Source: Alphaproteobacteria bacterium
Lineage (GTDB): Bacteria > Pseudomonadota > Alphaproteobacteria > UBA828
Length of the DNA stretch: 64,000 bases
Reading direction: 5' to 3'
NCBI GenBank assembly: GCA_963667785.2
Contig: CAXXMU010000006.1
Span: 608,001 to 672,000 of the forward strand
This document shows, piece by piece, positions 38,019 to 41,771 of the stretch. Within the stretch, counting starts at the first letter, position 1, and each line of letters begins with the position of its first letter. The position numbers and the translations under genes were made by a program. The notes under the pieces are model-generated. The model was given only the letters and a program-made list of their open reading frames with translations, was not told the DNA's origin and did not search any database.

Positions 38019-41000
38019 ATGACGGGCGACACGGTCGACGACGGGGCGGCGATGCTCGCGGCCCTTCGCATCTGCGCCTGCGTTTCGGCGGCGACGATTG
38101 CCTGTCTCGCCGGCCTCCTGCCGGCAAGCGGAGCGGCAGGCGCGAACGATGGCGCGTCCGTGGCCCCCCGGGTCGGATTTGTCGATGTGAGCGAAGCGGT
38201 CGGCTTGAACTACGTTGTAGAGACGGGCGGTGGGGAAGACGGCACAGAGCCGATCGAGGGCAATCTGGAGGACGGCGGCCTTGCGCTTTCCGACACAGAC
38301 GGCGACGGCCGGCTCGAGCTTTACGTCGCTCACGGGACGGGCGCAATCGGCCGGCTCTTCAGTTGGAACGGCCGCCGTTTCGAACCGAGGGCCGGAAATG
38401 GCGGCATTGCGCCATCCTTCATGAATCGGGCCGGCTATTTCATCGATCTCGACGACGACGGCGCGGTGGATTTCCTCTCGATCCACGGAGAGGGAACGCA
38501 GGCGTTTCGGAATGACGGCAGCGGGCGGTTCACGGAAATGCCCACCCCGTTCGGAGCCCGAGTCGACAGGTCCTTCTACTCCATGGCCGCCGCCGACTAT
38601 GACGGCGACGGCGATCTCGATCCATTCTTTGCCCACTGGAACCGGTTCTGGAACGACATCCGGCCCCCGACCGGATATCTCTGGCGCAACGACGGCAGGG
38701 GGCGCTACGAAGATGTCAGCCATCTTGTGCCGGTTCGCCCCGGCGCATTCGGCAGCAGTCCCGGCAAGCGCGAATTGTCGATGACGCCGACTTTCTCGGA
38801 TATCGACGGCGACGGCGATCCCGACGTCCTGCTGGCAGGCGATTTCGGCACGAGCCAGGTGCTGCGCAACGAGATCGGCGCCGGCTACAGGGACATCACC
38901 GACACGGCGATCACCGACGAGAACGGCATGGGCGCTGCGGTGGGGGACTACGACCTGGATGGCGATATGGACTGGTTCGTAACCAGCATCCACGATGCCG
39001 ACGGACGTTCGGGCTACGGCCCCACCGGCAACCGGCTTTACCGCAACAAGGGCGACGGCCGCTTCGAGGACGCAACGGATGTCGCGGGAGTTCGCAGGGG
39101 CGGTTGGGGGTGGGGAGCCTGCCTCGCTGACTTCGACAATGACGGGCGCCCGGACCTGTTCCACACGAACGGCTGGCTTGGCGGGGATGTCGAGAACGCC
39201 AGGGGCGAGAGTCGCAGTTTCACCGGCTTTCACGAGGACCCGTCCCGGCTCTTCATGGCCAACGGTGACGGAACATTCACCGAGCGGGCATCGGAGCTGG
39301 GCGTGCGTCACACGGGGCAGGGCCGGGGTGTCGTTTGCGCGGACTATGACGGCGATGGCCGGGTGGACATTCTCATCGCCAACCGCGGCGCCGCCCCCAC
39401 GGTCTATCGCAACGTCTTCGAGCGAAGGAACCACTGGCTCGCGATCGATCTCAAGGGCCGGCATGCCAACCCGATGGCGGTCGGCGCGCGTGTTACCGTG
39501 CGCACGGCGTCCGGAAGCCAGGTGCAGGAGGTGCGGCTCGGCACCGCTTACCTCTCCCAGGCGCCGTCGACGCTGCATTTCGGGCTGGGACCCGACCAGG
39601 TCGCACAGTCCGTCGAGGTGCGCTGGCCCGGCCCGGGCAACCAGGTCAGTCGGCTGGATGCCGTCGCCGCCGACCGGCACATCACCATCCATCAGGAGAA
39701 ACCTGACGATTTTCCGCTGCGCGTCGTCCGCGGAACCGGCACCGGGCTCCATGCCGAAGGCGCCATCGCCGCCATAAGCGCGGAGCCGGCTCGCGGCCGC
39801 TATCGATTCAGCCATTGGAGTGCCGAGGGCGGCGGCGCGTTCGGCGATGCGCGCGCGCCGGTCACGACCTTCGCAATGCCGGCCGGGCCTGCAACCGTGT
39901 TCGCTCACTATCTACCCGGCTTGTCGTCGGCGGACACGGACATGTCGGTTGCGCGGCGCTGGATGGAGGTGCTGCTGCAGGCGATCCGAGACGATCGCGC
40001 GCGCCCGACCGTTCATGCCCGTAATCTCTTCCACCTCTCCGCTGCCATGTACGATGCCTGGGCAGCCTGGTCGGAAGGAGCAACCCCGTACCATTTCGGC
40101 AGGAGCGGCGCCCCGTGCCGGGCGGCAATCCAGCCAGTGGGCGCGGACTTGAAACGCGCCCGGGAGCACGCGATCAGCCATGCCGCCCGGTGGCTCATTC
40201 GCCACCGGTTCCAGGGGTCGCCCGGCGCCGCCTCGACCCTCCGGAACGCCGATACCCTTATGGCCGCGATCGGACTCGAAACCGGGTCCGGGGCAGTTCC
40301 CGGGCCGGCGGCGGCCCTCGGTGACTGCATCGGCCGGTATTACATCGCCCGCGGTCTCGACGACGGATCGAACGAAGCCGGCGACTATTCGAACATCGTC
40401 TATCGGCCGGTCAATGAGGAGTTGGACCCAACCGAAGCCGGCAACCCCGCTCTCTCCGACCCCGATCGCTGGCAACCCGTATATCTGCCGCTGTTCATCG
40501 GCCAGTCGGGTTTGCCGGAGGAGGAAAGACCCGAGTTCGTGACGGCCGAGTGGGGCCTGGTCACGCCCTTCGCTCTGGCCGAAACGGATGTCGCGGTCCA
40601 TCGGCGGGACGGAGCCGACTGGCCCATCTATTTCGACCCGGGTCCGCCGCCTTTCTCGAAGGGTCCGTTGTCGGGGCACTACAAATGGGGGTTCTCCCTG
40701 GTCGCCCGCTGGTCGTCCCACCTCTCGCCCGAGGACGGCGTCACGATGGACATCGCGCCGTCGGGTATCGGAAACATTGCGGCCCTGCCGCGCCGGCTGG
40801 AGGACTATCCTGCCTTCTACGACGGCAACCCGCACGGTCCCGGTCGCACCGTCAACCCTGCAACCGGCAAGCCCTACCGTCCCCAGATCGTACCGCGCGG
40901 CGACTACACCCGCGTGCTCGCCGAGTTCTGGGCCGACGGACCCGACTCCGAAACTCCGCCCGGCCATTGGTTCGTGATCCTGAACGAGGTGAACGACCAT

Positions 41001-41771
41001 CCAGCGCTGGTCAGGCGGCTCGGCGGGCAGGGGCCGGTACTCGGCCCTCTCGAATGGGATGTGAAGACGTACTTCACCCTGGGCGGGGCGATGCACGACG
41101 TGGCCATCGCCTCCTGGGGAATCAAGGGGTGGTATGACTATATCAGGCCGATCTCGGCGCTTCGGTTCATGGCCGACCGGGGGCAGTCCAGCGATCCCGG
41201 GCTCGGTTCATGGTCGCCCCTCGGCATCCCTCTGGTCGAGGGCTTCATCGAGCTGGTCGGCCCGCAGGATCCTCTCGCGGGCGAGGACGGGGCGAATGCG
41301 GGAAAGATCAAGCTGCGAGCCTGGCGCGGCCCGGACCATGTGGCGGATCCGGCGACGGACGCGGCCGGCGTGGCGTGGATTCTTGCCGAGAACTGGTGGC
41401 CCTATCAGCGGCCGACCTTCGTCACCCCGCCCTTCGCCGGCTATGTCTCCGGCCATTCCACCTACTCCAGAGCAGCGGCCGAGGTGCTGACGGCGCTTAC
41501 CGGCGACCCGTTCTTTCCCGGTGGCATGAGCGAGTTCCGGATCCCGGCCAACGAGTTTCTCGTCTTCGAGCGCGGTCCCTCGGTCGATATGGTCCTGCAG
41601 TGGGCGACATACCGCGATGCAGCCGACCAGTGCAGCCTGTCCCGCATCTGGGGCGGCATCCACCCGCCGGCGGACGATATTCCGGGACGGCTCATAGGCG
41701 CACGGGTAGGGCGCGACGCTTTCAGGCTCGCGCTGTCCCTTTTCGACGGGAGCTATACCGGCGACCGTTGA
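38019..41771 (+). CDS. Secreted FG-GAP/CRTAC1-ASPIC/UnbV protein fused to a vanadium-dependent haloperoxidase (PAP2-superfamily) domain
   Basis: About 7 DxDxDGxxD blades; GARVTVR..EVRLG..YLSQ..LHFGLG..EVRWP (ASPIC/UnbV); [28 protein letters not shown] vanadate-site motifs; start 38019 or 38052. Confidence 0.88.

Follow-up and report, generated by a model that had tools for sequence, protein, structure and literature searches.

A putative vanadium haloperoxidase fused to a CRTAC1-type propeller in a sponge-associated alphaproteobacterium

Architecture of the fusion gene and its product

The stretch analyzed here (the window: 64,000 nt, positions 608,001 to 672,000 of contig CAXXMU010000006.1 in assembly GCA_963667785.2), which belongs to an alphaproteobacterium of the UBA828 lineage, carries on its forward strand a gene whose predicted product joins an FG-GAP propeller of the CRTAC1 type and a UnbV/ASPIC module to a domain related to vanadium-dependent haloperoxidases (VHPOs). 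At a G+C content of about 70%, long spurious open reading frames (ORFs) are common in this DNA. The frame described here is nonetheless genuine. It is open from a TTG codon at 37902 to a stop codon at 41769-41771 (+), and the ORF 38019..41771 (+) encodes 1250 aa plus the stop from ATG 38019, as a preliminary description of the stretch had held. Both this ATG and a GGAAG motif located 5-10 nt before it are kept in the closest congener, genome G008, in which homology to the window (93.5% identical nucleotides) begins at about 37887-37897; DNA further to the left is unrelated. The segment 37887..38018 (+) hence travels with the fusion gene and is a probable promoter/5' UTR region. Scans for sigma-70 promoter and terminator consensus sequences yielded no sites, an Rfam scan of 36900-42400 no matches, and an NCBIfam search with the 1250-aa protein no match. 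The signal-like N-terminus noted earlier is present at aa 1-42 (38019..38144, +), as read by eye from the translation; initiation at M12 (ATG 38052) would give a more orthodox signal, again by eye, with MLAALR followed by a hydrophobic core and ASGAAGA. The protein is predicted to be exported.

No stop codon or frameshift separates the domains. A sponge-metagenome contig of 4333 nt (run X1), about 98% identical to the window, spans 37284-41617 with 81 substitutions and a sole indel at 37788, 5' of the ATG, so that the whole covered part of the ORF is free of indels; a second contig of the same run covers 41628-41872 without gaps. Since the 81 differences mark the first contig as a different strain, the domain junction is intact in a second strain. 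An assembly chimera of two genes was considered and rejected, as it is contradicted by this independent contig and by thousands of co-linear homologues.

The propeller extends over about aa 60-480 (38196..39458, +) and is recognized by Pfam FG-GAP_3 (five stretches, E 3e-40) and FG-GAP (E 6.9e-7) as an integrin/CRTAC1-type propeller with calcium motifs. A script located seven Dx[DN]x[DN]G motifs, at aa 92, 143, 193, 261, 310, 371 and 442, in agreement with the approximately seven blades proposed before; the blade count thus derives from motifs and not from a structure. It matches the CRTAC1 structure (9etn; E 1.9e-21 with the single sequence, 2.1e-34 with a profile). UnbV_ASPIC (aa 487-555; 39477..39683, +; E 1.3e-17, 63.9 bits vs a cut-off of 23.4) sits directly after the propeller, in a region which aligns to CRTAC1 residues 355-488, and is followed by a beta linker (aa 573-631; 39735..39911, +) that had been likened to a divergent InlB B-repeat and indeed matches the Pfam family of that description, Flg_new_2, above its cut-off (E 8.9e-8, 32.5 bits vs 23.6). 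Vertebrate CRTAC1 (cartilage acidic protein 1) likewise consists of an FG-GAP calcium-motif propeller followed by UnbV/ASPIC, but in contrast to the window protein has no enzyme domain; its C-terminal end is an EGF-like region. We know of no molecular function assigned to CRTAC1-like propellers, even in humans, so that none can be transferred to the window propeller.

The catalytic module comprises about 610 residues (aa 640-1250; 39936..41768, +), and is recognized by Pfam, by profile comparison with the Protein Data Bank (PDB) and by the ESM Atlas. Pfam places DUF6851 on its N-terminal helical part (aa 674-820; 40038-40478, +; 26.9 bits vs a cut-off of 27), and the best stretch of VCPO_2nd at aa 1141-1215 (41439-41663, +; 27.9 bits vs 27). 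All three vanadate-site motifs reported in the preliminary description, beginning at aa 1036, 1142 and 1208, were found by script. Motif 1 is K1036-x6-R1043-P1044 with W1033 at position K-3 (KGWYDYIRP, 41124..41150, +), motif 2 is S1144-G1145-H1146 with F1139 at S-5 (YVSGHS from aa 1142, 41442..41459, +), and motif 3 is S1208-R1209-x5-H1215-x3-D1219 (41640..41675, +), with SRIWGGIH at 41640-41663. Motif 2 aligns to 'TPPFPEYTSGHS' of the iodoperoxidase from Zobellia galactanivorans (4cit).

Searched against the PDB as a single sequence, the module retrieved VHPO chains only (9l8x at E 2.9e-11, 9ptr, and 4cit). A profile built from 25 stand-alone catalytic modules (alignment A2) matched 9l8x (7.2e-25), esVHPO (9ptr, 4.9e-23), NapH3 (1.5e-22), NapH1 (2.1e-15), the Zobellia iodoperoxidase 4cit (3.6e-12) and the Curvularia chloroperoxidase (1.6e-5), with the alignments to VHPOs falling into three segments: the N-terminal helical part (profile positions 52-243), motif 1, and motifs 2-3. 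LpxE, the sole PAP2 phosphatase listed by this search, was not significant (E 0.64), and in the ESM Atlas every one of the clusters nearest to the module belongs to a VHPO family. The earlier VHPO assignment holds in that six VHPO structures, and no solved phosphatase, were matched significantly, and a placement of the C-terminal module in the VHPO branch of the PAP2 superfamily, rather than in its acid-phosphatase branch, is supported by these profile comparisons.

The NapH1/NapH3/esVHPO type (3w35, 8cxl, 9ptr/9pts, 9l8x) provides the best profile matches (E 7e-25 to 2e-15) and also aligns over a 'KLRAW...' insertion between motifs 1 and 2. Overall identity to the window module is low, these enzymes are single-domain proteins of 478-548 aa whereas the module of about 610 aa lies behind a propeller, and where motif 2 of the window reads S-G-H, the aligned residues are S-G-S in 9l8x and S-G-F in NapH3. 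For the selectivity lysine and the tunnel of esVHPO, no alignment to the window module was obtained. To our knowledge, all characterized VHPOs are stand-alone enzymes. The Zobellia iodoperoxidase (4cit/4usz) is nearly identical to the window in motif 2 (TPPF..Y.SGHS), and an 'FW.D...GHW' block 5' of motif 1 aligns both to 4cit and to the chloroperoxidase of Curvularia inaequalis (1idq/1vnc); both enzymes lack accessory domains, and their matches (3.6e-12 and 1.6e-5) are far weaker than those of the NapH type. The 9PTR entry is holo-esVHPO, a bromoperoxidase from Enhygromyxa, according to its description (PMC12633397).

Among 25 relatives, no variation occurs at K1036, R1043, S1144-G1145-H1146, R1209 and H1215, nor at the proline and tryptophan of motif 1. 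In a larger sample, the 150 best representatives of clusters at 50% identity, 142 have residues in all seven columns, of which 135 retain the complete heptad K-R-S-G-H-R-H, suggesting that the enzyme is under selection. The tryptophan at K-3 occupies every one of 148 filled columns, the lysine 147 of 148, and the phenylalanine at S-5 140 of 146; by position they match Trp and Phe of fungal vanadium chloroperoxidase (W350/F397), which we take to line the halide pocket, although halide preference cannot be read from W1033 and F1139. The remaining seven representatives (P0214, P0221, P0230, P0232, P0235, P0247 and P0258) carry substituted heptads, e.g., MRSGSQN or KSSEYAN, and are probably non-catalytic or re-purposed.

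Relatives and partner domains in other genomes

Far from rare, the fusion represents one of the common architectures within a very large family and is found widely among marine bacteria. In a word-indexed search with residues 640-1250, 7993 of 8000 scored candidates passed E <= 1e-3; of the 120 relatives listed, almost all share the full architecture at 63-84% identity, and those with a name are called 'FG-GAP-like repeat-containing protein'. Exhaustive phmmer comparison with 1.84 billion cluster representatives retrieved 4216 at E <= 1e-3, 2197 at E <= 1e-10 and 742 at E <= 1e-30. Among contigs sampled at one genome per species, at least 583 stretches encode a relative; the locus statistics given below rest on the best 80 of these, which stem from Alpha- and Gammaproteobacteria, Bacteroidota, Rhodothermota, Latescibacterota, Acidobacteriota, Ignavibacteriota and others. 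At 53-80% identity across phyla, they point to a very large, conserved family of predicted exported VHPO-like modules which is habitually associated with a CRTAC1-like propeller. Cultured carriers include Winogradskyella pacifica R3187, Fulvivirga marina 29W222 and Chondrinema litorale and, for the cytochrome c peroxidase fusion described below, Marinimicrobium sp. C2-29. Of the objection foreseen in the preliminary description, that the architecture be already common and characterized, the first half holds, judging from the 4216 representatives and at least 583 stretches, but not the second: our searches of the literature on VHPO, FG-GAP, ASPIC/UnbV, DUF6851, T9SS and sponge symbionts yielded no paper on the fusion or on the catalytic family. 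The accessible portions of a halogenase-database paper (PMC13519999) and of a paper on alkyl-quinolone VHPOs (PMC11312541) mention neither FG-GAP nor propellers, and a study on bacterial integrin-type propellers (PMC3192720) mentions none of haloperoxidase, PAP2, ASPIC, chloroperoxidase, phosphatase and vanadium.

Some family members stand out individually. On a 524-kb plasmid of Chondrinema litorale from a red alga, NZ_CP111045.1, a member with 54% identity (78629-80479, -) bears no annotation other than 'T9SS type A sorting domain-containing protein'; more distant relatives on plasmids (30% identity) go by the name 'vanadium-dependent haloperoxidase'. A gammaproteobacterial metagenome-assembled genome (MAG) contains two full fusions in tandem (L058, 2451-6236 and about 6500-10280) and the start of a third propeller (10709-12136), two further fusion copies (L012 and L013) come from a single MAG, and P0139 (1415 aa), with two catalytic-module and two DUF6851 stretches, has a tandem-enzyme architecture.

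The catalytic module occurs at the N-terminus, in the middle or at the C-terminus of proteins of 420-3618 aa. FG-GAP, usually together with UnbV_ASPIC, precedes the module in 20 of 36 representatives, which were picked by hand for variety in length and not at random, and a sorting domain of the type IX secretion system (T9SS) is present in 18 of them; further partners in this set are CBM_4_9, PKD, He_PIG, MopE, SdrD_B, F5/8 type C, NPCBM, dockerin and TSP3. Among the 80 loci, 24 are fused in frame (at least 550 aa open upstream), five are cut by a contig end, and 51 are unfused. A propeller/UnbV gene, confirmed by Pfam, adjoins the enzyme gene on the same strand at four of the 51 unfused loci and at the edge-cut locus L019. 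The enzyme comes first at L029 (662 aa, overlapping by 4 nt the gene of a propeller of 540 aa), at L030 (enzyme-T9SS, then propeller-fn3-T9SS after a gap of 25 nt) and at L019 (gap of 191 nt), and second at L043 (propeller-PKD_6-T9SS of 726 aa overlapping enzyme-T9SS of 722 aa) and L057 (gap of 24 nt). In the Bacteroidota pairs L043 and L030, each half carries its own T9SS tail, so that the halves would have to meet outside the cell. The junctions of the fused proteins also differ by clade: Flg_new_2 in proteobacteria, PKD_6 in Winogradskyella pacifica (L086), Ig_3 in P0261 and P0269, and no linker domain in P0131 and P0134. The survey of fusion and adjacency proposed in the preliminary description accordingly returned 24 fusions and five split neighbor pairs, and the Rosetta-stone link between the two families, proposed there from one protein, is borne out by neighboring genes in both orders and by at least four different junctions. 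It is a new observation that propeller and enzyme also exist as individual genes, adjacent or overlapping and with either one first, and that the linkers of the fusions differ.

An enzyme tree was calculated from 79 rows, L057 (stop codon inside the tblastn span) and one locus with a short match having been dropped. Fused rows fall into two clades, one of 20 proteobacterial rows and one of 7 Bacteroidota rows, plus a singleton, corresponding to at least four changes between the fused and unfused state, as compared to a mean of 21.5 after shuffling. Constraining the fused rows to a single clade costs 102.7 log-likelihood units and is rejected marginally (p-AU 0.037), in a test whose groups were named after the first tree had been seen. 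Catalytic modules of Bacteroidota are 55-60% identical to that of the window, the propellers only 25-28%, which fits either an independent recruitment of different CRTAC1-like lineages or a much looser constraint on the propeller. Apart from propeller paralogues, no conserved operon partner emerged from 504 neighboring ORFs (up to four genes on each side); the commonest families are FG-GAP paralogues (11 loci), ABC transporters (10), TonB-dependent receptors (8), histidine kinases (8) and sulfatases (4).

A search with the propeller only (aa 45-570), restricted to longer proteins, revealed a second partner. The best 120 relatives comprise 96 with VHPO-type domains, ten with CCP_MauG (PF03150), i.e., a di-haem cytochrome c peroxidase (CCP), and 14 without a catalytic Pfam domain; 11 of these 14 were scanned again with Pfam, ten being tandem propeller/UnbV proteins and one consisting of FG-GAP repeats only. 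That the closest long propeller relatives which lack a VHPO module but have a catalytic domain carry a di-haem CCP is likewise new. All ten CCP fusions have two CxxCH motifs and a signal-like N-terminus, and in the four re-run against Pfam the CCP domain (about aa 80-310) precedes the FG-GAP repeats and UnbV. They resemble the window protein in being predicted to be exported with a peroxide-using domain on the same scaffold, but their catalytic domain is haem-based and N-terminal, whereas that of the window is C-terminal. Their sister propellers are 44-48% identical to that of the window over more than 90% of its length (P0319 from Marinimicrobium sp. C2-29, for example, 45% over 513 aa). In a 48-row propeller tree, from which the L019 partner was dropped for its short alignment and in which three Bacteroidota rows sit on long branches, eight CCP-fused propellers are sister to the 19-row VHPO-fused clade of the window with 99% SH-aLRT support, and the VHPO-linked propellers of P0079, P0093, P0109 and the split partner at L057 fall outside this pair, among tandem propellers. 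Our literature search found nothing on CCP-propeller fusions beyond a remark on gene neighborhood in PMC12758564, where a CRTAC1-family gene is placed between homologues of hydrazine synthase alpha and of its CCP-like beta-gamma subunits; this remark agrees with a link between propeller and peroxidase.

The genome of the window itself contains only one other FG-GAP/UnbV_ASPIC gene, which encodes 560 aa and is located on contig C1 (L106:8956-10638, -).

Proposed function and alternatives

VHPOs are prized as catalysts for halogenation, and in the sea they drive the cycling of halogens. We consider it probable that the window protein is a vanadate- and peroxide-dependent halide oxidase which acts at a surface or on a bound target. 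After Sec-dependent export, the C-terminal module would bind vanadate from seawater and use H2O2 to oxidize a halide (Br-, I- or Cl-) to a hypohalous-acid equivalent. The calcium-loaded propeller with UnbV, on its short beta linker, would be the working partner of the peroxide-using domain, and would either bind the polymer, surface or protein to be oxidized, or handle the substrate; the targeting role proposed in the preliminary description is one of several readings. Animal peroxidasin, an extracellular haem peroxidase which oxidizes halide and is held at its macromolecular target by matrix-binding LRR/Ig repeats, offers a functional analogy, with an unrelated fold and no homology to the window protein. 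Many bacterial VHPOs are exported and act extracellularly, those which act on exogenous quinolones mostly having signal peptides, as stated in PMC11312541. The same propeller lineage is also fused to a di-haem CCP, which argues for a partnership specific to peroxide chemistry, and not for generic adhesion. Likewise, the joining of one propeller lineage to two unrelated H2O2-using enzymes indirectly favors peroxidase over phosphatase chemistry, and the swap of partners suggests that the role of the propeller is tied to peroxide.

Several points weigh against a halide oxidase. The Pfam scores of the catalytic module are marginal, VCPO_2nd lying 0.9 bit above its cut-off and DUF6851 0.1 bit below, and the halogenating activity of the window protein, as that of the whole family, is predicted from sequence. 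PAP2 acid phosphatases use the same catalytic residues, so that vanadate and phosphate chemistry cannot be told apart from the sequence. Not all VHPO homologues halogenate, and NapH3 is among the best matches. None of the 504 neighboring ORFs belongs to a conserved neighbor that would supply H2O2 or a substrate, and the second UnbV gene of the genome adjoins genes for a fatty-acid desaturase and a branched-chain amino-acid ABC transporter, with no peroxidase nearby. The linkage data are affected by the choice of the 36 representatives by hand and by the naming of the AU-test groups after inspection of a tree.

One competitor is a secreted phosphatase or phosphoesterase, which might scavenge phosphate from organic matter while the propeller binds a polymer, and for which vanadate would be an inhibitor. 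The K/R/S-G-H/R/H/D set of the window is exactly that of PAP2 acid and lipid phosphatases, which follow the same motif logic (K-x6-RP, SGH, SR-x5-H-x3-D), and Pfam reports a sub-threshold PAP2 match (15.3 bits vs 27.2, E 0.018). TonB-dependent receptor, SusD and sulfatase genes near a minority of loci would fit nutrient capture. Phosphatase activity of apo-VHPOs and vanadate binding by acid phosphatases are both cited in 10.1101/2023.06.02.543482. PAP2 phosphatases differ from the window protein in being either membrane proteins or proteins of about 230 aa with a single bundle. We nevertheless regard a phosphatase as unlikely: none of the solved phosphatases matched significantly (LpxE, E 0.64) against six VHPO structures, the N-terminal helical part aligns to VHPOs as well, the tryptophan at K-3 and the phenylalanine at S-5 with their presumed halide-pocket role are nearly invariant, and the sister propellers carry a haem peroxidase and not a hydrolase. 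Moreover, Pho-box-like patterns occur three times in the window, as compared to 2.4 expected by chance, and none is near the gene, a weak test which relied on an E. coli consensus.

A non-halogenating enzyme with a VHPO fold seems to us no likelier than a phosphatase. Such an enzyme might catalyze halide-independent peroxidation, detoxify peroxide at the cell surface, or perform a non-redox rearrangement of the NapH3 type, and it would be in keeping with the high rank of NapH3 (E 1.5e-22), with the exchange for CCP, a plain H2O2 reducer whose presence fits peroxide removal, and with the lack of a biosynthetic gene cluster around the fusion gene. Yet the window protein keeps the full vanadate set including the acid-base His1146, the residue at which NapH1-type enzymes, NapH3 and 9l8x differ, as well as W1033 and F1139, and the abundant halide of seawater would presumably be oxidized by a vanadate peroxo species anyway.

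Least probable of all, and in our opinion hardly to be expected, is a propeller that serves as the client of the enzyme, the peroxide-using domain oxidizing residues of the propeller or of a protein bound in it to form a protein-derived cofactor or a cross-link, in the way known for MauG and methylamine dehydrogenase; PF03150 includes CCP as well as MauG, the same propeller lineage takes either oxidizing domain, overlapping stop and start codons in split pairs suggest stoichiometric co-production, and the gene order remarked on in PMC12758564 is compatible, but no candidate for a modified residue was identified, there are tandem propeller-only relatives and many enzyme-only family members, and the CBM_4_9, F5/8 type C, NPCBM, PKD and dockerin modules of the family point to external targets.

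Beyond the halide-oxidase reading of the window protein, it is conceivable, though we hold it rather doubtful as a general rule, that CRTAC1-type propellers (FG-GAP plus UnbV/ASPIC) function as dedicated partners for enzymes that use H2O2 outside the cell. One propeller lineage would then have been joined repeatedly, by fusion or in operons, to vanadate and di-haem chemistries, and would present or hold the target or itself be the client. If so, the CRTAC1/ASPIC family, its vertebrate member included, would gain a first lead to its function, and the alternation of vanadate and di-haem enzymes on one lineage provides a testable hypothesis for both families. If true, the same reading would also reveal a widespread, surface-bound system for halide oxidation in marine and sponge-associated bacteria. 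For many halogenated sponge metabolites we know of no enzyme that makes them; a link of the window gene to such compounds is speculative.

Genomic location and origin

The fusion gene is present in one copy in its genome. Matches occur in eight of 20 other genomes of the genus, that of G013 being a 49%-identical fragment with a stop codon, and the gene is absent from all 20 relatives examined outside the genus and, at E <= 1e-30, from 300 genomes drawn evenly from the class. In the enzyme tree, the window and two alphaproteobacterial MAGs group together (100%) inside an otherwise gammaproteobacterial clade, suggesting a transfer from Gammaproteobacteria. Nucleotide homology to the loci of five congeners covers 37887-41847 in the closest (93.5%) and less in the others, and the flanks are unrelated in all. 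The sequence was found in runs from 10 studies labelled sponge metagenome or labelled with coded organisms; no RNA run was among those listed, which does not bear on expression.

The insert is bracketed by a direct repeat of about 670 nt at a spacing of about 5100, whose copies are 81-96% identical (families D1-D4 and D9). Copy 1 (36725..37392) comprises the 5' end of an intact hemB on the reverse strand, identified by Pfam ALAD, an intergenic region, and the 5' fragment of a decayed lipoprotein gene (37100-37630, +). Copy 2 (41843..42493) comprises a hemB 5' fragment (41832-41973, -), the intergenic region, and the 5' end of an intact lipoprotein-like ORF (42230-43549, +; 439 aa, N-terminus ..LLTACGGG.., no Pfam match), which is the probable ancestral divergent neighbor of hemB. 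In the congener genomes, hemB is located elsewhere. Contigs from other runs cease to follow the window sequence near 37405 and at 41842, a contig of run X3 passing into unlike DNA; the latter break and the right edge of congener homology (41847) coincide with the start of copy 2. We conclude that the fusion gene is a recently acquired single-gene insert of about 4 kb in a sponge-associated alphaproteobacterium, a new finding being that it is enclosed by a duplication of the hemB locus. The repeat layout fits single-crossover integration of a circular intermediate, or duplication followed by insertion. A repeat-flanked transposon was considered and rejected: there is no transposase, the insert ends lack inverted repeats, and the congener locus has no flanking repeat.

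No biosynthetic gene cluster surrounds the fusion gene. The flanking genes belong to ordinary metabolism and show no obvious connection to it, namely the penicillin amidase family, CoA-transferase III, M19 dipeptidase and AtuA (ORFs 32238-35498, 34673-36424, 43563-44588 and 46855-48204, all -), and a molybdopterin dehydrogenase set extends over 48241-52030. Elsewhere in the window, the G+C content dips to 0.54 at 4001-6000 and to 0.57 at 30001-32000, as compared to about 0.70, marking possible foreign islands; the second dip contains a MORN-repeat ORF (29920-30831) and a DUF4145 ORF (31441-32214, -).

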